Positions 1,089 to 45,941 of a stretch of DNA of 64,000 nt are shown piece by piece; position 1 is the stretch's first letter; each line of letters begins with the position of its first letter. The position numbers were made by a program, and so were the translations under genes. The notes beneath the pieces were generated by a model. That model made no database searches. It had not been told where the DNA came from and worked only from the letters and a program-made list of their open reading frames with translations. The stretch lies in the NCBI RefSeq assembly GCF_056712565.1, contig NZ_CM160072.1. One strand, written 5' to 3'.

Positions 1089-3227
1089 TTAACCTATCTG
1101 CCCATTTCCCAAATGTTTAACGCGGCGCTTAACTTCTTCCTGCTTACCAGCGTTAAACGGACGTGCATCCGGGCTACCTAAATATCCGCACACGCGGCGA
1201 GTCACCGACACACGGGAGGTGTCATGGTTACCACATTTCGGACAAGTGAAGCCTTTGCTGGTGCACTCAAATTCGCCGGTAAAGCCACACTCGTAGCATT
1301 CATCGATCGGTGTGTTGGTGCCGTAATACGGTACATGCTGATAGCTGTAATCCCAGACATCTTCCAGCGCCTTCAGGTTGTGCTGAATGTTTGGATACTC
1401 GCCATAGCAAATGAAGCCACCGTTCGCCAGTGGCGGGTAAGGCGCTTCAAAGTCGATCTTGTCGTACGGGTTCACCTTCTTCTCCACATCGAGGTGGAAA
1501 CTGTTGGTGTAGTAACCTTTATCGGTCACGCCCGGCACCACGCCAAACTCAGCGGTATCGAGACGGCAGAAGCGGTCACACAGGTTCTCACTCGGCGTAC
1601 TGTAGAGGCTGAAACCGTAGCCAGTTTCTTCTTTCCACTGATCCACCGCCTGACGCAGACGCTCAACAATCGCAATACCTTTCGCGCGCAGCTGCTCGTT
1701 GTCGTAAACATGCTCGCCGCCGAACAGCGCGTTAATGGTTTCGTGGATGCCGATGTAACCCAGCGAAATAGACGCACGACCGTTTTTGAAGATTTCAGAA
1801 ACGTCGTCGTCAGCATTCAGACGCACGCCACAAGCGCCTTCCATATAGAGGATCGGGGCTACGCGCGCTTTCACGCCTTCGAGACGAGCGATACGGGTCA
1901 TCAGCGCCTTACGTGCCAACACCAGACGTTCATCCAGCAGCTTCCAGAAGGTGGCTTCATCGCCTTTTGCTTCCAGAGCAATACGCGGCAGGTTCAGGCT
2001 GATCACGCCGAGGTTGTTACGACCATCGTGGATCTGCTCGCCGTTTTCATTTTCCCACACGCCGAGGAAGCTGCGGCAGCCCATCGGGGTTTTAAACGAA
2101 CCGGTGACTTTCACTACCTGATCGTAGTTCAGGATATCCGGATACATGCGCTTGCTTGCGCACTCCAGCGCCAGCTGTTTGATGTCGTAGTTCGGATCGC
2201 CTTTTTTATGGTTCAGGCCATCGCGAATCGCAAACACCAGTTTCGGGAACACCGCCGTTTTACGGTTTTTACCGAGGCCTGCGATACGGTTACGCAGGAT
2301 CGATTCCTGAATCAGGCGCGATTCCCAGCTGGTGCCCAGACCAAAACCAAAGGTTACAAACGGCGTTTGACCGTTGGCGGTATGCAGGGTGTTTACTTCG
2401 TACTCCAGCGACTGGAAGGCATCGTAGCACTCTTTGATGGTACGAGAGTTAGCGTAGCCTTCGGCGTCCGGGATGTTCCACTCTTCTGCGGTCTTGCGAT
2501 GTTTGTTGTAGCTGGCGGTGACAAACGGTGCCAGCACTTCATCGATACGGTTAATGGTGGTGCCGCCATAAATATGGCTGGCGACCTGAGCAATAATCTG
2601 CGCAGTTACCGCGGTTGCCGTAGAGATCGACTTCGGCGGTTCAATCTCGGCGTTCCCCATTTTAAAGCCCTGGGTCAGCATGCCTTTCAGGTCGATCAAC
2701 ATGCAGTTGAACATCGGGAAGAACGGCGAGTAATCGAGATCGTGATAGTGAATATCGCCACGCTCATGTGCCTGCACCACGTCACGCGGCAGCAGGTGCT
2801 GGCGTGCATAGTGTTTAGCCACGATCCCGGCCAGCAGGTCGCGCTGGGTTGGAATCACCTTGCTGTCTTTGTTGGCGTTTTCGTTGAGTAACGAGGAGTT
2901 GGTCTGCTCGACCAGACCACGGATCTCCTGGTTCAGGCGACCGCGTTTTTCACGTTCAATGTCGCGATCGTGACGGTACTCGATGTAGGCACGAGCCAGT
3001 TGTTTGTATGGCCCCGACATCAGCTGGTTTTCAACTGCGGTCTGGATCTCATTGATATCCACTTGGTTGCGGCCCTGCATCTGCTCGCTGACAACCGCAG
3101 CAACAGTGGCGCAATAATCGGCATCATCGACTTCCGCTGCTTTAGCTGCACGCAGAATCGCTTCTTTGATGCGCTCTGATTTAAACGGCACTTTGCAGCC
3201 GTCTCGTTTCATCACATGCGGTGTCAT
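1089..3227 (-). CDS. nrdD: anaerobic ribonucleoside-triphosphate reductase (class III, glycyl radical)
   Basis: 712 aa; C-terminal glycyl-radical motif RVCGYLG and zinc-ribbon cysteines. Confidence 0.95.
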   Translation of the reverse strand: MTPHVMKRDGCKVPFKSERIKEAILRAAKAAEVDDADYCATVAAVVSEQMQGRNQVDINEIQTAVENQLMSGPYKQLARAYIEYRHDRDIEREKRGRLNQEIRGLVEQTNSSLLNENANKDSKVIPTQRDLLAGIVAKHYARQHLLPRDVVQAHERGDIHYHDLDYSPFFPMFNCMLIDLKGMLTQGFKMGNAEIEPPKSISTATAVTAQIIAQVASHIYGGTTINRIDEVLAPFVTASYNKHRKTAEEWNIPDAEGYANSRTIKECYDAFQSLEYEVNTLHTANGQTPFVTFGFGLGTSWESRLIQESILRNRIAGLGKNRKTAVFPKLVFAIRDGLNHKKGDPNYDIKQLALECASKRMYPDILNYDQVVKVTGSFKTPMGCRSFLGVWENENGEQIHDGRNNLGVISLNLPRIALEAKGDEATFWKLLDERLVLARKALMTRIARLEGVKARVAPILYMEGACGVRLNADDDVSEIFKNGRASISLGYIGIHETINALFGGEHVYDNEQLRAKGIAIVERLRQAVDQWKEETGYGFSLYSTPSENLCDRFCRLDTAEFGVVPGVTDKGYYTNSFHLDVEKKVNPYDKIDFEAPYPPLANGGFICYGEYPNIQHNLKALEDVWDYSYQHVPYYGTNTPIDECYECGFTGEFECTSKGFTCPKCGNHDTSRVSVTRRVCGYLGSPDARPFNAGKQEEVKRRVKHLGNGQIG

Positions 3228-3419
3228 GATCGCTCCATATTTTTAAGAACAGGTTATCCACAGAAATTGGGAAAGGCGTTTTCCGGTTTTTTCGTTTCGT
3301 TTTCCGGTGCTTTCCGCAATCGCCATCCGCTTATCCACAACGCCGCACCTTTTTCGTGGGGAGCTGTAGTAGCAATTATAGTCGATTAATACAACATATT
3401 GGGTTGGGACGCATTTTAA

Positions 3420-3480
3420 AGTCTATATATAGTGCTTTGCATCAAGGATGTTTGAACTTTTTTTGATGTAGCTCAAAGTA
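3420..3480 (-). promoter_or_regulatory. nrdDG promoter region with NrdR-box-like palindrome (ctatatatagtg) and FNR-like site (ttgatgtagctcaa)
   Basis: motifs seen in sequence upstream of nrdD; assignment rests on known anaerobic FNR and NrdR regulation of nrdDG. Confidence 0.4.
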
Positions 3481-3620
3481 AAAAGCAGAGCGTACGGATG
3501 ACGGGCGCTACAGCGATATGTAAATTTTTTAATGAATTTTTTGATTATAAAATCAACAAAAACAACATGCTGACAGGCAAAACCCCGGAATGACAGGCAT
3601 TACCGGGGCTTAGCGAAGAT

Positions 3621-5276
3621 TTACTTCTGTAACCACCAGACAGCCTCAAAAGGCCGTAAAGTCATGGCACAGGGTTGTGGTGAGGCTTCTTCGTAGTTAT
3701 GCATCACAAGCTGCCAGTTGCCGAGCATTTTCCCTGGCTGCCAGGGTTGGGTCTCACGGCTAAGGTTGGCAATGACCAGCAAGGTTTGCCCCTTCCACTC
3801 ACGGCGATAGCACCACAATACAGGGCTGTTTGGCAGCAGATCCTGGTAATCGCCCCATGTCAGGACGGCTTCTTGCTTACGCAGTGCGATTAACTTTTGG
3901 TAGGTGTAAAACACCGAGGACTCATCGGCCAGCGCTGCTTCTACGTTGATTTCCTGATAGTTATCGCCCAGGCCAATCCACGGTTCGCCAGCCGTAAACC
4001 CGGCATTATCGCCGTTGGTCCATTGCATGGGGGTGCGACTGTTGTCACGGGATTTACTGGCGAGGATTGCCAATAACTCGTCGGCATCACGCCCATCGTT
4101 GCGCAGCTCGGCAAACATATTGAGGCTCTCCACGTCGCGATAGTCAGTAATGCGCGTGAAATGTGGGTTGGTCATGCCAATCTCTTCGCCCTGGTAGATA
4201 TACGGCGTTCCCTGCATGCCATGCAGCACCATCGCCAGCATTTTTGCCGCAGGCACACGGTATTCACCTTCATCACCAAAGCGAGAAACAATGCGCGGCT
4301 GATCGTGGTTACACCAGAACAAGGCATTCCATGCCACGTTGTGCATTCCTTGTTGCCAGTGGCGGAACAATGTTTTCAACGCCACAAAGTCAGGTTTAGC
4401 CAGCGTCCATTTTTCACCACCGGGATAATCGACCTTCAGGTGATGAAAATTAAAGGTCATCGACAATTCACTGCCTGTCAGTGCCGCGTATCGCTGGCAA
4501 TGCTCAAGGCTGGTGGAGGACATTTCACCTACGGTCATTAACCCGCGTGGCGTAAACACATCGCGGTTCATCTCGTGCAAAAATTCGTGTGCTCGTGGCC
4601 CGTCGGTGTAGAAGCGACGCCCGTCGCCATCCAGGTCTTCAGGGTAACGCGGGTCTTTGGAGATCAGATTCACCACATCCAGGCGCAACCCGTCGACCCC
4701 ACGATTGGCCCAGAACTCACAGACTTTTTTCAGCTCTGCGCGTACCGCTGGATTCTCCCAGTTGAGATCCGCCTGTTCTGGTGCAAAGAGATGCAAATAG
4801 TACTGTTCGCTTTCCGCATGCCAGCGCCACGCACTACCACCGAATTTTGAACGCCAGTTGTTCGGTGGCGTTTCTGGTTCTCCATCGCGCCAGATATAAA
4901 ACTGGCGGTAAGGGCTTTCTTTGTTCAGCGCCTCGCGAAACCAGGCATGTTGGGTAGAGGTATGGTTAAACACCATATCGAGAATGATACGAATCCCACG
5001 CGATTTTGCCTGTGTCACCAGTTCGTCAAAATCGTCCAGCGTGCCATAGGTGGGATCAATCGCCGTATAATTCGCTACGTCGTAACCGTTATCGACCTGG
5101 GGAGAGACATAAAAGGGGGTTAGCCAGATGGCATCAACGCCCAGTTTATGCAGATAGTCCAGACGCTGGATAACGCCACGTAAATCGCCGGTGCCGCTAC
5201 CCGTGGTGTCCTGAAAACTCTTTGGATAAATCTGGTAGATAACGCCGTTTTGCCACCAGTGGGGAAGATGAGTCAT
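3621..5276 (-). CDS. treC: trehalose-6-phosphate hydrolase (GH13)
   Basis: GH13 alpha-glucosidase family sequence; start placed at MTHLPHWW (551 aa) rather than the longer ORF. Confidence 0.92.
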   Translation of the reverse strand: MTHLPHWWQNGVIYQIYPKSFQDTTGSGTGDLRGVIQRLDYLHKLGVDAIWLTPFYVSPQVDNGYDVANYTAIDPTYGTLDDFDELVTQAKSRGIRIILDMVFNHTSTQHAWFREALNKESPYRQFYIWRDGEPETPPNNWRSKFGGSAWRWHAESEQYYLHLFAPEQADLNWENPAVRAELKKVCEFWANRGVDGLRLDVVNLISKDPRYPEDLDGDGRRFYTDGPRAHEFLHEMNRDVFTPRGLMTVGEMSSTSLEHCQRYAALTGSELSMTFNFHHLKVDYPGGEKWTLAKPDFVALKTLFRHWQQGMHNVAWNALFWCNHDQPRIVSRFGDEGEYRVPAAKMLAMVLHGMQGTPYIYQGEEIGMTNPHFTRITDYRDVESLNMFAELRNDGRDADELLAILASKSRDNSRTPMQWTNGDNAGFTAGEPWIGLGDNYQEINVEAALADESSVFYTYQKLIALRKQEAVLTWGDYQDLLPNSPVLWCYRREWKGQTLLVIANLSRETQPWQPGKMLGNWQLVMHNYEEASPQPCAMTLRPFEAVWWLQK

Positions 5277-5325
5277 TACGTTATTCCTGCAAATGCGAGG
5301 GGGCGCAATTGCGCCCCGAAGAAAA

Positions 5326-6747
5326 TTAAACAATGTCCAGCGTGCCCAGGCGGTATTTCCGCTGATAGATAAACGAGGTGAGTACAATCGGGATGATGAT
5401 GGCGATAGCCATTGCCAGCGCAAACACCTGCCAGTAGCTCGGTTGAATCGAGAGAATTCCCGGCAGGCCGCCTACGCCGATGCCATTCGCCATAACGCCG
5501 TTCAGGCCGCATAGCAATCCTGCCAGACCAGAACCAATCATCGCGCACAGCATCGGGAAGCGATATTTCAGGTTGATGCCGTACATTGCAGGCTCAGTGA
5601 CCCCAAGCCAGGCGGAGATCGCCGCAGGCACGGAGATCTCGCGTTCATTGTGCTTGCGGCTGGAAATGATAATACCTATCACAGCGGAGCCCTGAGCGAT
5701 ATTCGACAGCGCAATCAGCGGCCACACTGGCGTGCCACCCATGCTTTGAATCATCTGCAAATCAATAGCAAGCGTGGTCTGGTGTACGCCGGTGATCACC
5801 AGCGGGGCGTACAGGAAGCCAAACAATGCCGCGCCAATCGGAGCAAAGCTGCCGGTCATCAGGTGACGTACCGCAAAGGCAACGCCATCGCCAATCATGC
5901 GACCAAACGGACCAATCAGCGCATGGGCGAGGAACACCGCGAGGATCAGCGAACAGACGGGCACCACCACCAGGTAGAGGTAATCCGGCACGATGCGCTT
6001 AAGACGAGTTTCAATAACGCCCAGCGCCAGCCCGGCTAACAGTGCCGGAATAACCTGTGCCTGATAGCCCACTTTGGCGATGCTGAACATGCCAAAGTTC
6101 CATACTTCCGGCAGCTGCTGCCCGAGCAGATAAGCGTTCATCAACTGTGGGGAAACCAGCGTCACGCCAAGCACGATACCGAGGATCGGTGTACCGCCCA
6201 TTTTTTTCACCGCTGACCAGCAAATCCCGACCGGCAGGTAGAAGAAGATCGCTTCACCGATCAACCACAGAAAATCGTAGATCGTTTGCAGGGAAGGGTA
6301 CATTTGCGCCAGCGTTTGACCGTTGCTCATGGGCAAATCGCCGATCACATTGCGAAAACCGAGGATCAAACCGCCGCTAATCAACGCGGGCAGCAACGGG
6401 AAGAAAATCTCCGCGAAATGAGAGATCAACTGCTCATGCCATTTCATATTCTGCCGGGCGGCTTTTTTTACCTGCTCTTTATCAACCTGCGCCTGTCCGG
6501 TTGACGCTATCAGTGCTTGATAGTAATCACCCACGTTGGTGCCAATCACCACCTGAAATTGCCCGGCATTGGTGAAACAGCCTTTCACCATGGGGAGTTG
6601 CTCAATTTCTTTCGGTCTGGCATTGGCCGGTTGGTTGAGGACAAAGCGCAGACGAGTAATACAGTGGCTCACCGTCGCAATATTGCCGCGCCCGCCGACC
6701 AGTTCAATCAACCGATCGATATCCGTTTGGTTTATTTTGCTCATCAT
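5326..6747 (-). CDS. treB: PTS trehalose-specific EIIBC component
   Basis: 473 aa; EIIB cysteine motif VSHCITRLRF followed by polytopic EIIC domain. Confidence 0.93.
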   Translation of the reverse strand: MMSKINQTDIDRLIELVGGRGNIATVSHCITRLRFVLNQPANARPKEIEQLPMVKGCFTNAGQFQVVIGTNVGDYYQALIASTGQAQVDKEQVKKAARQNMKWHEQLISHFAEIFFPLLPALISGGLILGFRNVIGDLPMSNGQTLAQMYPSLQTIYDFLWLIGEAIFFYLPVGICWSAVKKMGGTPILGIVLGVTLVSPQLMNAYLLGQQLPEVWNFGMFSIAKVGYQAQVIPALLAGLALGVIETRLKRIVPDYLYLVVVPVCSLILAVFLAHALIGPFGRMIGDGVAFAVRHLMTGSFAPIGAALFGFLYAPLVITGVHQTTLAIDLQMIQSMGGTPVWPLIALSNIAQGSAVIGIIISSRKHNEREISVPAAISAWLGVTEPAMYGINLKYRFPMLCAMIGSGLAGLLCGLNGVMANGIGVGGLPGILSIQPSYWQVFALAMAIAIIIPIVLTSFIYQRKYRLGTLDIV

Positions 6748-7813: not shown

Positions 7814-7997
7814 CCTGTTGTCCCATAACGTGTTGTTTAATTATTTGAGCCTAACTTTACCTGTGCATTCAGCAATGGGTAAAGTCTGGTTTATCGTTGG
7901 TTTAGTTGCCAGCAGGTATTATATCGCCATAAATGCTACGAATATTATTGGATTCTCCTTATTATTTGCGGCGCTTTTTTCACTTACCGGAGGTTAT

Positions 7998-8051
7998 ATG
8001 GAACCTGATCCCACGCCTCTCCCTCGACGGAGATTAAAACTTTTCCGGTAA
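7998..8051 (+). CDS. mgtL: mgtA leader peptide (proline-rich, 17 aa)
   Basis: [17 protein letters not shown] short ORF in the mgtA 5' leader; embedded in an artefactual longer six-frame ORF. Confidence 0.8.
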
Positions 8052-8191
8052 GCCCGTCTTTTCACGGCGTTACCGGATGCGTAAGGCCGTGACGTTTTAA
8101 CGTCCCTGCTCAGCTTTATTACCTTCAGGTAAGGCTTCGCCACGCCTGAAGACATTTCTGTACTGTTTCAGACAGTGCGGAGGGACTCCTT
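8052..8191 (+). promoter_or_regulatory. mgtA 5' leader (Mg2+/proline-responsive attenuation region)
   Basis: position between mgtL and mgtA; established knowledge of the mgtA leader. Confidence 0.5.
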
Positions 8192-38831: not shown

Positions 38832-38916
38832 GCCGAAGTGGCGAAATCGGTAGACGCAGTTGATTCAAAATCAACCGTAGAAATACGTGCCGGTTCGAGT
38901 CCGGCCTTCGGCACCA
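38832..38916 (+). tRNA. leuX: tRNA-Leu (anticodon CAA)
   Basis: 85-nt sequence gccgaagtggcgaaatcggtagacgcagttgattCAAaatcaacc...ggcacca with long variable arm and encoded CCA. Confidence 0.95.
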
Positions 38917-41768: not shown

Positions 41769-42099
41769 CTGCTCTCCAATGACTAGTCTAAAAACTAGTA
41801 TTAAGACTATCACTTAAATAAGTGATATTGGTTGTCTGGAGATTCAGGGGGCCAGTCTAGTAACCTCATAAAAAATCCTGTACTCACAGGGTGATGCGGG
41901 ATAACTGACGTAAGGAGTGCTGCAGGGATTTGATGGTCCCTTGTGCTGATATGAATACGGATATTTTATACAGAATACTTTTCAGTACAAGCGACTGTAT
42001 TACAGTCTGCCATATATGATTACCTGTGATCAGGAAGAATAAGTGGCTGAGGTTTCAAACTGTCTGCCGGTATATTCCTCTCTCCCTTAAAAACCATAA

Positions 42100-43330
42100 C
42101 AGGTTAGTTATCTTCGTCTGTCAGCGGATTGAATGGCGGTATATTTTCAGTACAAATACCGGTCATCCACTGAAAAATACCTGCGAAATGACGGGCACTG
42201 ATTTTTCTACTGACGGGCTGATGAGACGTTATGTCACTGGCGGTAATAATCAGTGGCACACTGTAGCCTCCCTGCACATGACCATAATGATGAACAGGAT
42301 TGGCACTGTCGCTGACCGACAGCCCAAGGCCAGAAAAGTAAAGCATGGCGAAATGACGTGAGTACCGGCGAAGGATACCATCAAGCTGGCCAAGAAAGTT
42401 ATCCAGTTTACTGATGCTGGCGAGGTAACAGGCAATTTTTCGGGGATACTGCTCCAGGTAATTATTCGGCTAGGAGTTAAGGCTGTCACACGGATTTGGA
42501 TGAGAACCCATCATGTGCAGGAAAATTATCTTCGGAGAGGATGTATCCGCCAGCGCACGTTCTGTTTCCTGTAACAACAGTTTGTCATCTGTTTTACGGG
42601 AAGCGAAGCTGCCTTTCTTGAGGAAAGTGGCATGCTCCGCATCAGAAGCAATAACAGAGATGCGTGTGTCATGCCCCCCAGTTTTCCTTGATTGGATATC
42701 CACCATGTGCTGTATCCTGCTTTTGCTGCCAGCGCCACCACATTGTTGCCGGAATCAGGGTTCTGCTCATAGTCATAAATCAGTGTCCGGCTCAGGGAAG
42801 ACACTGTACTGGAGGCTGTCGAGGTATAATCGTCAATAAATAAACCGGGTGCCGTATTCAGCCACGGTGTGGTTGGTACGGGATAGTCATACACTGACAT
42901 ATAATCCCTGCGCACACTCTCACCAGTGACAATAACAATCGTATCATATAACGGTGCTCCCGGCTGGATTTTCCAGTTGTCAGCCCCGTGCTACTCAGTT
43001 GTTCATAACGCTGCATTTCACGTAATGTGTCAGTTGTCCCCACAACTGTTCCTTTAACCATCCGCAATGGCCAACGGTTTACAGAGCATAATACGAATAG
43101 CCGTAGAGCCAGCCAGTTACGGTGGTCGCGATGGTGTGTCCGCCAGAAAATCACCACGAATACCAGAATCGCGGCACTGACCAGAAAATGATAAACAGGA
43201 AACACGGGGCGGTTCACTTTGCTTTCTCCTGTAGTGTTTTCTGTAGGTTCTGAACCGGTTCTAGCGGGGTTGTGAGGCTGATGGCAATCGCCGGGCTCTT
43301 CCTGCATGTTACACTGGTACTGCAAGAGGG
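42100..43330 (-). pseudogene. yjgX: EptA/sulfatase-family phosphoethanolamine transferase remnant, broken into several frames
   Basis: adjacent minus-strand ORF fragments with sulfatase-type motifs (HMMGSHPNPCDSL, VPLIITASD, DYMSVYDYPVP) and an upstream membrane-domain fragment. Confidence 0.6.
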
Positions 43331-43649
43331 GGCCTTCGCTCCTCTGACATTACTCAGTATTTTCACTACTACACCCCATCTGCCATCCATAACAACCGAT
43401 TCACCCCCTCGCGAGGCGTTGTTGCCCGTCACCCGGACAGACACCGTTATGGATTTCTCTTGTTGCACGATCGATCAATTGTTATGCATGCTGACACCAC
43501 AACCCCGGTGGGTATGACCGATGCCTTTCTCACTCTCTTCCCGGTCATCGTCGGCCTTCCCCGTTATTGTGGCGTGTCAGCACCCTCGACGGCATTTCGA
43601 TGGCTGCTCAGTGTTCACTCACGTTACGGCCCGCATAACCCGTTGACTT

Positions 43650-44015
43650 CCTGAAGAAGTCGTTTCAGGGAGAGATTCAGCCCTTTTGTTACCTCCTGGA
43701 CCGCTTCTTGTCCTTCCAGTCGGAGCGAGAGTTAGCCGGGGCGGACTTTCACCGACGGAAAGATCGTGCATTTCAAGGCACACACAACAATATCTGCGAG
43801 CGTGCTATCCGTCCGGTCGTTATGGGACGAAAGGCCTGGTTGTTCGCTGGTTCACTGGTGGCCGGGAACCGCGCGGCACAGATAATGAGCCTTCTGGGAA
43901 CCGCAGTCTGGAGCCACATGCTTGGCTGACGGACGTCCTGACGCGTCTGCCGGAGTGGCCGGAGGAGAGGTTGGCTGAGTTACTGCCTCTTGAGGGCTTT
44001 ACCTTCTTCGGGTAA
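43650..44015 (+). pseudogene. yjgZ: IS66-family transposase C-terminal remnant (109-aa ORF plus overlapping frame)
   Basis: two overlapping frames carry ERAIRPVVMGRKAWLFAGS...AAQIMSLLGTA and HAWLTDVLTRLPEWPEERLAELLP, the conserved C-terminal IS66 transposase region. Confidence 0.6.
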
Positions 44016-44515
44016 GTGATACCTGCCGTCAGGTGTTTGTGCACCGGGCCATAACCTGCAGTTGGGAATTGAACGCCTGACAACAGGAAATGAGCTAGAG
44101 CAGTAAACACGCGGGCTGACAATGGGTCAGAATATGAGTTAGCCCGGCGTTATTCCTGGGGTCAGTACTTCAGATCTAGCCTCCGGTACCAGACTAGCTA
44201 GCCCCTACGCAACCAAATAAATCAACCATCGTCAGAGTGCAATCGTTCATATACACTGTCGGTGATGCGCTAAAAAATGCGTTAATGTTGAGTTCCTCGA
44301 ACCCTTACCAATTAAGGGACATAGCCAGATACGCAACTGGCTGATGCAAGCAGTCTAATGTCTTTAGATCCGCTGGCCTGCGGGCATGACAATGTCAAAC
44401 AGTCAAAGATTGTGGCGTTGACGGTCAGTCTTGGGGACAAAAAAGCTCAGTATTCTCGTTGGCAACCAGATAATTTAACAGTTGATGCTGAAACGAAATA
44501 GGCATCTTGGTTCTG

Positions 44516-45941
44516 TAATGCCAGTCAGTTAAGCAACTGACTGGCTCTTTTTCGGGGCTGTGGGGTATTTCCAGGGCCTCTCCTTTACCACTCTCGGGAA
44601 GGCCCTTTCCCTTCTTGTCGGTAATTTCACAAGTTGTCCCATACTTGCAAGATCGCGCATCAGCTCCGGTATACGTCCCGGTGAAGCGCCCTGCAATGTT
44701 ATCAGCATTCTCATCACCATTCCGCATGATTCTGAGAAACTCAGTTGATTCGGCCAGTAACCTTTCAGATGTTCCGCCATTTTAATCATCTGATATCTCA
44801 CCAGATTATAAGCCAGTAAGACACCCCACAGCTCTTGCTCCACAAGCTCCGGCTTTTTACTTCTCAGCGTCAGCCTGCTCCGTTGCATCGTCTGTTTTAT
44901 CTCCCTGTATCCCAGTTCGATTTCCCAGCGATGACTGTACAGATCCCCCATTTCTCCTCCGGGGAAGCGCATGGCGTCCGTCATCGACGTCAGCAGATGG
45001 CAGACTTTTCCTTTGCGCGTCACGGTCAGCAGGCGGGCAGTCACTTCATTTCCCAGTCCCGGCCACTTTTTTCGTGCCTGCGGGCTGGTTTTCAGCTTCA
45101 CCAGATGATCGCCTTTACCCAGTTTTCTGATCTCTTCATATTGCGCTCCCTTTCTGAGAGGTATCATCCAGTGGCGGTGTTCTCCCGCCAGGCTCCAGGC
45201 ATTTAACAGTCCCAGTGAGTAATAACCTTTATCCATTAACGTCAGAGTGTTATCGCCGGTTTGTTCTATAAGTTGCTCAGCAAGCTCATTTTCGCTGTTC
45301 TTCATCGTGCCGAAGGCTGCAGCCGTCAGCAGATGGCTGGTCAGTTCCATCTGGCAGACCATTTTGACCTGCGGGTAGAGCGCCGGGTTCCCGGCATGTG
45401 TCTGGCGGGGGAAGGCTGCATCGTTCTCTGGTGTATCCGGTGTGCGCCAGAACACACCATCGATGGCCAGCAGGGTCAGGCCGCACCAGTGCGGATGCGG
45501 CGTGGCGTTATGCCAGAGCTGCGCTGTTTTCGTGAACACGCGGCGGACAGCCTCACTTCCCAGGCGCTGGCGGGCCTGAATAACGGCACTGGGGGCAACG
45601 AAGGGGCGATTGCCCGGCAGCATGATGTCCAGGCGATTCACAATCTGGTGAAGAGGTTCTTTACGCTCAAGCGCCATGCCAACAATACACCAGACCATCA
45701 TTTCGAGGGGAAGACGGCGCTTGCGTAGCGTTACAGTACCTGATTCGGCAAGGCAACGAGAGATGAGTTCGGGGTCGAGGTAATCCCCCAGAGAAGTCAG
45801 TGGGTTACGCAGAGAATCGTAACGGGATACCAGATCAAGAGCCTGTCCAATGTGCATAAAAAAATCCGGAAACAAGTGAGCGTTTCCGGATTCTTACACA
45901 GCCACTGGATCGGTCAACTGATCCTTAACTGATCGGCATTA
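44516..45941 (-). mobile_element. IS4, 1426 bp, flanked by 12-bp direct repeat atcttggttctg
   Basis: ends taatgcc...ggcatta; identical 12-mer at 44504-44515 and 45942-45953. Confidence 0.9.
44529..45875 (-). CDS. insG: IS4 transposase
   Basis: 448-aa ORF filling the element. Confidence 0.9.

Follow-up and report, generated by a model that had tools for sequence, protein, structure and literature searches.

Positions 43209-44308 of the window, by which the whole 64,000-nucleotide stretch of DNA analysed here is meant, most probably consist of two nested dead mobile elements: the 5' head of a group II intron and the 3' tail of an IS66-family insertion sequence, into whose transposase gene the intron had inserted in antisense orientation. 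A probably spurious ORF, known in E. coli K-12 as yjgZ, runs across their junction. The probability of this reading is put at roughly 0.9. Within it, the two fragments with their boundaries and orientations were identified by direct comparison with relatives, and the order of the events and the inertness of the remains are deduced from their structure. The region is the leuX-associated island, KpLE2 of E. coli K-12, in which tRNA-Leu, an integrase, an IS2/IS3-type element, a transferase pseudogene, the small ORF, IS4, nanX and nanY follow one another from left to right. The features are as follows:

38832-38913, tRNA-Leu, in the left part of the island
between tRNA-Leu and the transferase pseudogene, an integrase and an IS2/IS3-type element
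42033-43204, minus strand, phosphoethanolamine-transferase pseudogene of the yjgX type, with internal frameshifts and the first ~104 codons gone
43205-43208, four nucleotides that belong to the homology of neither side
43209-43783, minus strand, 5' fragment of a group II intron, its first 575 nt (blastn and Rfam)
43619-43758, minus strand, match to Rfam RF02003 (group-II-D1D4-4), full model 1-138
43686-44015, plus strand, yjgZ ORF of 109 aa, with a TTG start and a chimeric frame
43784-44015, plus strand, 3' remnant of an IS66-family tnpC gene, the last ~80 codons from the Asn-Asn of an Asp-Asn-Asn motif to the stop
44016-44308, plus strand, IS66 3' non-coding end of 293 bp, including the right terminal inverted repeat
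44287-44308, minus strand, right terminal inverted repeat (IR)
44309-44512, non-IS flank to the right of the IS66 end, common to the region upstream of nanXY in strain MS 200-1
44529-45875, minus strand, IS4 (insG) transposase ORF, Pfam Nterm_IS4 and DDE_Tnp_1
to the right of IS4, nanX and nanY

Several clinical E. coli chromosomes share 43200-44500 with the window at 100% identity, and K-12 derivatives share 43600-44130, likewise at 100%. The RefSeq annotation (PGAP) places a pseudogene inside the 109-aa ORF and describes it as 'transposase domain-containing protein; frameshifted; incomplete; missing N-terminus'. Of the two fossils, the IS66 part is routine and already annotated in RefSeq; the intron carries no RefSeq annotation.

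The first-pass annotation of this DNA had proposed that the 109-aa ORF and an overlapping frame together contain the C-terminus of an IS66-type transposase, as the trace of an old, degraded insertion into an island of mosaic history, annotated as no more than a small ORF. This is borne out by both Pfam domains, which score above their cut-offs: DDE_Tnp_IS66 (PF03050) in the overlapping 73-aa ORF at 43708-43929 (model positions 255-282 of 284, E 6.6e-8, 32.7 bits, cut-off 23.1) and DDE_Tnp_IS66_C (PF13817) in the 109-aa ORF (E 3.6e-10, 40.3 bits, cut-off 30). With an intact ISEc49-family TnpC of 521 aa from E. coli 25POL as tblastn query, residues 443-482 were placed at 43786-43905 in frame 1 and residues 480-521 at 43887-44012 in frame 3 (78-81% identity). 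The similarity is highly significant (E 9e-30) and covers the last 79 residues of the protein at about 80% identity, with no comparable match elsewhere in the 64-kb window.

The tnpC tail is read in frame 1 up to about 43903 and in frame 3 from there on, because 10 bp present in four relatives are deleted between 43903 and 43904 (a placement ambiguous by 1-2 nt); the absent bases read CGAAACGCAA in ISEc49. In blastn searches of 5,426 complete E. coli genomes the similarity to other IS66 tnpC genes begins at 43784, with none before, and amounts to 82-86% identity to the tnpC genes of O157:H7, of the C8 plasmid and of ISEc49. In a multiple alignment with four uninterrupted IS66 copies the window is fully unlike them to the left of ACAACAATATCTGCGAG. 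Neither TnpA and TnpB nor residues 1-440 of TnpC of ISEc49 found anything at E<=0.1 in the 64-kb window (tblastn; the best match, 23 kb off, had E 0.12), and the lack of tnpA and tnpB is attributed to truncation. The tail is a remnant, not a functional gene.

The right edge of the remnant had been set at 44015. That edge does not hold, since the alignment with the ISEc49, O157 and C8-plasmid copies goes on beyond the tnpC stop codon, and the remnant runs on to the IS end at 44308; the 293 bp of 3' non-coding sequence had been overlooked. After 44161 a gap of 65 nt is found, where the relatives have two extra TCAGTACTT-type repeat units, three in all. The O157 and C8 copies, which lie in unrelated contexts, lose their mutual similarity right after ...GAGTTCGCCGGAAC(A/G)ATAC (that is, ...GAAC(A/G)ATAC). 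The counterpart in the window is ...GAGTTCCTCGAACCCTTAC, the last base of which is 44308, and the window is alignable up to ...GAACCCTTAC at that position.

A terminal repeat of the IS66 type, which had been suggested as something to be looked for nearby, is present at 44287-44308 and reads GTAAGGGTTCGAGGAACTCAAC from the end inwards on the minus strand. The right ends of the relatives read GTATCGTTCCGGCGAACTCAT... inwards and are inverted copies of the ISEc49 left end, GTGTCGTTACGGGGAAGTCATCTTCAC; when reverse-complemented, the C8 right end agrees with GTGTCGTTACGGGGAAGTCATCTTCAC at about 21 of 27 positions. Compared with three relatives the right IR is intact, and it starts with GTAA, as is usual for the ends of this family. 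Insertion of IS66-family elements produces an 8-bp target duplication. To the right of 44308 the sequence reads CAATTAAG. The left IR is absent, and a search of all 64 kb that allowed up to 3 mismatches found no second copy of the IR. The flank beyond is cut by IS4 from about 44513, and the alignment between the window and MS 200-1 holds to 44512 and then parts.

To the left of 43784 lies a group II intron fragment on the other strand. The RF02003 match scores 69.1 bits against a gathering score of 49, with E between 1.3e-14 and 4.7e-13 depending on the search space. The fragment begins with GUGUG at 43783, the 5' consensus of group II introns being GUGYG, and covers the 5' ribozyme domains, breaking off some 7 codons into the ORF for the intron-encoded protein (...LQEKAK). 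Over the 575 nt, blastn against plasmids gave 89.6-89.9% identity to Enterobacter copies, 88% to a Salmonella copy, 76% to an Azotobacter salinestris copy and 72% to Burkholderia copies; the Azotobacter intron is annotated with ltrA and adjoins an 'IS66 family transposase' fragment. Domains V/VI were sought with RF00029, which found no match in the window at the gathering threshold or at E<=10, and the Azotobacter intron-encoded protein (IEP) had no tblastn match anywhere in the 64-kb window. Since domains V/VI and the intron protein are missing, catalytic activity should be impossible, and the fragment is predicted neither to splice nor to reverse-transcribe.

The interval 43650-44015, which had been assigned as a whole to IS66, is therefore divided: 43784-44015 stands as IS66, and 43650-43783 (134 bp) is an antisense group II intron. 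It had been missed that about one third of the interval is an intron fragment and that this fragment truncates the IS66 element.

That the entire interval should nevertheless be IS66 tnpC, with a left part that is more diverged or belongs to a second IS66 element, is improbable in the extreme. A tblastn segment with the TnpC of IS682 (aa 428-497, 36% identity) does reach left to 43654, and residues 392-447 of the same protein are weakly collinear at 43547-43711 (E 0.015 in a search space of 575 nt). However, nearly all of the score of the former segment comes from the right of 43784, the ISEc49 TnpC has no match left of 43786, and the four uninterrupted IS66 copies part fully from the window left of ACAACAAT. 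Among the IS66 relatives seen there was no full-length element with a tnpC that runs on through anything like 43650-43783. On the other strand, the left stretch scores higher than the Rfam gathering score for a group II intron, and it is 90% identical to such introns over 575 nt. The full-length Enterobacter intron contains the weak TnpC-like match as well, although its real upstream tnpC exon is 2 kb distant, beyond the opposite end of the intron; the recurrence of the match there marks it as a chance similarity. An extension of IS66 leftward to 43547 was considered in addition and is ruled out, as that stretch is intron at 90% DNA identity.

The intron fragment ends on its left against the phosphoethanolamine-transferase pseudogene, which PGAP describes as 'frameshifted; internal stop; missing N-terminus'. 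Relative to an intact 500-aa orthologue in strain 2012C-4431 (92.5% DNA identity), the homology stops at 43204, which corresponds to codon ~105 (tblastn, blastn), and no part of the window holds the 104 codons that are lost. As the homology ends in the middle of the gene and the lost codons are absent, a single deletion appears to have joined intron nt 575 to codon ~105 of the transferase gene.

The right boundary of the intron fragment is a homing junction. It reads ...TTGTTGT|GTGTGCC in all four aligned copies (window, Enterobacter, Salmonella and Azotobacter); beyond ...TTGTTGT the sequence differs among the copies, yet in each it encodes IS66 TnpC on the other strand. Uninterrupted IS66 genes read GACAACAAT (Asp-Asn-Asn) at the intron site. 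The full-length relatives are about 2 kb long and encode a 428-aa reverse transcriptase (RT)/maturase with RVT_1 and GIIM and no endonuclease domain. On plasmid pJBIWA003_1 of Enterobacter sp. JBIWA003 (locus L067, whose coordinates are given here) the intron extends from ~2589 to ~4584 on the strand opposite to TnpC, and holds RF02003 at 2614-2753, the RT ORF and RF00029 at 4433-4583. It is flanked on the opposite strand by IS682-like TnpC aa 451-537 upstream and aa 421-457 downstream. The Azotobacter intron has TnpC aa 433-461 on one side and aa 36-441, followed by tnpB, on the other.

The junction was also scanned as a 17-mer in one genome per GTDB species, with a pattern that fixed only seven exon bases. 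The scan returned 53 loci, against an estimated 35 or so expected by chance, and 20 of them continue like the intron. In 14-16 of these 20 the strand opposite to the 5' exon encodes NN-x-x-E-x-x-(I/L)-R...G(R/K)KNWLF-x-GS. As this IS66 motif extends past the seven fixed bases, it is independent evidence for an IS66 site. Hosts in the scan included Azohydromonas, Stutzerimonas, Nitrosomonas, Pandoraea, Pseudoduganella, Janthinobacterium and several metagenome bins. Judged from these sequences, the target of the intron lineage is the Asp-Asn-Asn codons of IS66 tnpC, which it enters on the antisense strand, and one such event would be recorded in the window. Candidate exon-binding sites were sought across 19 copies: exon positions -8 to -13 have no co-varying intron segment, and if G-U pairs are allowed, TTGTTGT finds pairing partners in many parts of the intron.

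The yjgZ ORF lies across the homing junction and is composed of three parts:

43686-43783, 98 nt, antisense to the intron
43784-43903, 120 nt, tnpC out of frame
43904-44015, 112 nt, tnpC in frame, IS66_C domain

The 109-aa ORF is residue for residue K-12 YjgZ (AAC77233.1; b4277), and close relatives of YjgZ in UniRef are named 'Transposase IS66 C-terminal domain-containing protein'. Neither the identity with yjgZ nor the existing RefSeq tnpC pseudogene had been noted in the first-pass annotation. In K-12 resources yjgZ is still listed as protein-coding, and it has served as a proline-rich test N-terminus in a translation study (PMC8934632).

The full composite is also found, at 97% identity, in ST131 strain JJ1886, where its junctions and the 10-bp deletion are unchanged and an extra C at 43949/43950 shifts the yjgZ frame. 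In blastn with a 531-nt query, 455 records fall in the band of 95-99% identity, and among the matches listed all six at 97.6-97.7% identity span 532 bp. The +1 insertion in alleles of the JJ1886 type implies that the yjgZ frame is not conserved among carriers.

It has to be weighed whether yjgZ might encode a real small protein that is expressed, having arisen by domestication of an IS66 C-terminal domain that gained a new N-terminus. K-12 and some 1080 records at least 99% identical have the ORF open, identical 109-aa proteins have been deposited from many genomes, and the gene appears in lists of K-12 hypothetical proteins; in the same study it is one of five hypothetical genes for which no regulator or co-regulated function was found (PMC12356324). 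Against a domesticated protein stand the TTG start codon and the composition of the frame, of which the first 33 codons are antisense to the intron, the next 40 are out-of-frame tnpC and only over the last ~36 residues is tnpC read in its own frame. The +1 insertion truncates yjgZ in the JJ1886/ST131-type allele; the band of 95-99% identity holds 455 of about 1530 carriers, and the six listed matches at 97.6-97.7% carry the extra base within yjgZ. PGAP calls no yjgZ protein. Domestication is thus very unlikely. Instead, yjgZ is read as an accidental frame over two dead mobile elements and most likely codes for nothing functional, and the case for retiring it as a gene is made here.

The remnant could also have been kept as an RNA. 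According to one report, an RNA of about 300 nt between yjgZ and insG, 'ig-yjgZ-insG', was seen by Northern analysis and co-immunoprecipitation and is destabilised without Hfq (PMC4152368). The two genes are separated solely by 44016-44528, with IS66 sequence (44016-44308) making up more than half, and a strong terminator-like hairpin is found on the plus strand at 44520-44545. Accordingly, part of the IS66 3' end or of the flank is transcribed, and the description of the remnant as inert may fail for that stretch. It is a further step, and an improbable one, that the IS66 3' end or IR holds the start of the RNA or drives it and that the remnant was kept for it. The text of that report gives no strand or coordinates for the RNA, a promoter scan found nothing resembling a sigma-70 promoter in 43400-44700, and the hairpin lies inside the IS4 end, so that the RNA could be related to IS4 or lie wholly in the flank 44309-44512. 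Retention in 28% of genomes is explained equally well by neutral hitch-hiking in the island.

The junction of transferase, intron and IS66 (43150-43800) is present at no less than 80% coverage in 1,532 of 5,426 complete E. coli genomes (about 28%), and the IS66 part (43600-44130) in 1,531 of the 5,426, essentially with one copy each. The junctions are identical in strains of phylogroups A (K-12) and B2 (JJ1886). That both phylogroups share them points to a single old event, inherited along with the island. Among the 5,426 complete genomes there is no E. coli genome in the undeleted state and none with a full-length copy of the intron.

The nested-element reading implies the following history. 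An IS66 element, nearest to the ISEc49/O157 type, would have come to lie with its right end 204 bp upstream of the present IS4/nanXY region. A group II intron, whose IEP lacked an endonuclease domain, would then have retrohomed into the antisense strand of tnpC and split the gene exactly after the ...GAC AAC AA of the conserved Asp-Asn-Asn motif. A deletion would subsequently have taken everything leftward of intron nt 576, namely the RT ORF, domains V/VI and about 85% of tnpC, together with tnpB, tnpA, the left IS end and about 104 transferase codons. From the intact homing junction we infer that the intron was inserted before the deletion occurred. What was left, a 575-nt intron head (43209-43783, minus strand) abutting a 525-nt IS66 tail (43784-44308, plus strand), would have been unable to splice, reverse-transcribe or transpose. 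Later decay probably brought the 10-bp deletion in tnpC, the loss of 3' repeat units and, in some lineages, the +1 insertion. Gene callers would finally have taken the open frame over the junction for a gene, the 'yjgZ' of K-12.

The main value of the result is annotation hygiene in the best-studied bacterial genome, where yjgZ still counts as an uncharacterised protein and is included when functions are sought for hypothetical ones. If the reading is true, K-12 has carried an unrecognised relic since its genome was first sequenced, and the fragment is a second group II intron fossil for K-12-type E. coli genomes, outside the published survey. The comparison of many bacteria adds that one intron lineage lands on the most conserved codons of the IS66 transposase, in the orientation that inactivates the IS. 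In other respects this is ordinary genomic debris, and the understanding of insertion sequences and group II introns is unchanged.

A broader proposal joins these points: a widespread, unnamed lineage of endonuclease-less introns would parasitise IS66 at the Asp-Asn-Asn codons, antisense to tnpC, and would have left an unrecognised K-12 relic in yjgZ, with the IS66 3' end perhaps adding to an Hfq-bound RNA. An intron in antisense orientation is not removable from the transposase mRNA by splicing, so that the host IS would be killed. The proposal as a whole is tentative, and we would sooner expect one of its parts to fail than all of them to hold. In the literature consulted, coverage of which was incomplete and in which silence is absence of evidence only, no description was found of the lineage, of antisense homing at Asp-Asn-Asn or of an intron relic in yjgZ/KpLE2.

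Among insertion sequences the closest counterparts are ISEc49 and the unnamed IS66-type copies of O157:H7 and C8 plasmid A. The tail resembles theirs, with 78-81% protein identity to ISEc49 and 82-86% DNA identity to the three copies, 3' non-coding region included. In the window, unlike in these relatives, an element of about 2.7 kb is reduced to its last ~525 bp. It is without tnpA, tnpB, the catalytic part of tnpC and the left IR, has the frameshifting 10-bp deletion and retains one TCAGTACTT-type repeat instead of three. Among introns, those of Enterobacter pJBIWA003_1 and of Azotobacter have the same 5' 575 nt (90% and 76% identity), GUGUG start, homing site and antisense orientation. They differ in being about 2 kb long with RT and domains V/VI (RF00029 in the Enterobacter copy), whereas the copy in the window ends at about codon 7 of the ORF.

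IS66 elements are a known kind of intron target, as is apparent from Sr.md.I1, a relative of RmInt1 noted inside IS66 transposase ORFs of Sinorhizobium medicae (PMC4615759). E.c.I3, a class D intron of E. coli and Shigella, has been reported to target IS679 of the IS66 family (PMC3522654). Like the intron in the window, it has its homing site in the conserved C-terminal part of tnpC of an IS66-family element, and truncated fossils of it occur in Escherichia and Shigella. In E. coli 536, however, its orientation is sense and the GRKNWL|F codons are its insertion site, some 20 codons further downstream than the one in the window. No similarity between its DNA and the fragment was detectable, and the proteins of E.c.I3 and of the Azotobacter intron share only 32% identity. 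The different site, the opposite orientation, the lack of DNA similarity and the low protein identity rule out that the intron in the window is E.c.I3. For MG1655, a 2012 survey of Enterobacteriales gave E.c.I4-tr1 as the only group II intron fragment (PMC3522654); the fragment in the window is absent from that K-12 list. Both are truncated K-12 intron fossils in a prophage-like island. E.c.I4-tr1, however, is 1764 bp long, lies in CP4-6 and derives from an intron that targets transposases of the IS3 family, whereas the fragment described here lies in an island of the leuX/KpLE2 type.

The IS66 3' end and flank of the window have a second copy in E. coli MS 200-1, in which nanX-nanY follows directly. 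This copy lies at a different chromosomal site, adjoining VENN/Rhs-type toxin genes, and carries neither the intron nor the 10-bp deletion nor IS4.

Locus L005 (E. coli MS 200-1, NZ_CP146679.1), 3488-4700: IS66 3' end and flank, corresponding to window 43863-44512.

The occurrence of this arrangement at a different site indicates that the IS66 end and nanXY move jointly as one block. The IS66 remnant is truncated at different points in MS 200-1 and in the window, so that the insertion is older than either truncation.

[quoted passage not shown] In window 44016-44560, the yjgZ-insG interval consists of the IS66 3' non-coding end and a 204-bp flank, and the end of IS4 contains a strong terminator-like hairpin.

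Window 44520-44545, plus strand: hairpin, GCCAGTCAGTTAAGCAACTGACTGGC, followed by a T-run.

In the phosphoethanolamine-transferase pseudogene (window 42033-43204) the reading frame shifts internally at least twice, and ~104 codons are missing from the N-terminal end. Other E. coli strains, e.g. O178:H19 2012C-4431, have an intact 500-aa orthologue adjoined by a different integrase. Other Rfam matches noted in the window, all exceeding the gathering score, are as follows.

Window 7983-8098, plus strand: Mg riboswitch, 125.8 bits.
Window 26714-26789, plus strand: naRNA4/CssrE, 75.4 bits.
Window 27623-27817, plus strand: Ysr276, 183.1 bits.

The intron/IS66 composite was also found, as a nearly unchanged E. 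coli B2-type allele, on a 2.2-kb contig (JAIJJM010000556.1) of a 'Collinsella sp.' metagenome bin; the contig probably comes from E. coli and was mis-binned into an actinobacterial genome.

A single endonuclease-less group II intron lineage is present in Proteobacteria, Acidobacteria and Planctomycetes (loci L008, L067, L022, L024, L029, L030, L038, L045, L054, L058, L060 and others). Its intron always adjoins the Asp-Asn-Asn codons of tnpC genes of the IS66 family on their antisense strand (L008, L067, L022 etc.) and, in this orientation, cannot splice from the transposase mRNA. In tblastn, the antisense strand of the intron 5' region shows weak similarity (22-26 bits) to IS682 TnpC aa 363-447 that looks collinear.

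Window 43547-43711, antisense to the intron: weak IS682 TnpC-like match.
Enterobacter plasmid pJBIWA003_1 (L067), 2661-2909, antisense to the intron: the same match.

These segments were considered as tnpC and judged to match by chance, because the true exon of the full-length copy sits beyond the intron. The match is what misleads a reading by eye into extending the IS66 remnant leftward.

Two further introns were found in IS66 elements.

pJBIWA003_1 (L067), 2179-2325: 5' fragment of a different group II intron (Rfam RF02012, 91 bits).
E. coli 536 (L013), 2271-5375, sense to tnpC: E.c.I3, splitting IS66-family tnpC at the codons GRKNWL|F.

The RF02012 fragment precedes the full-length intron by ~260 bp, inside the IS66 tail region, and suggests that the same IS has been hit by introns repeatedly. 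The E.c.I3 site is only ~20 codons downstream of that of the window intron in tnpC; thus neighboring, highly conserved stretches of one transposase are the targets of two unrelated intron lineages.
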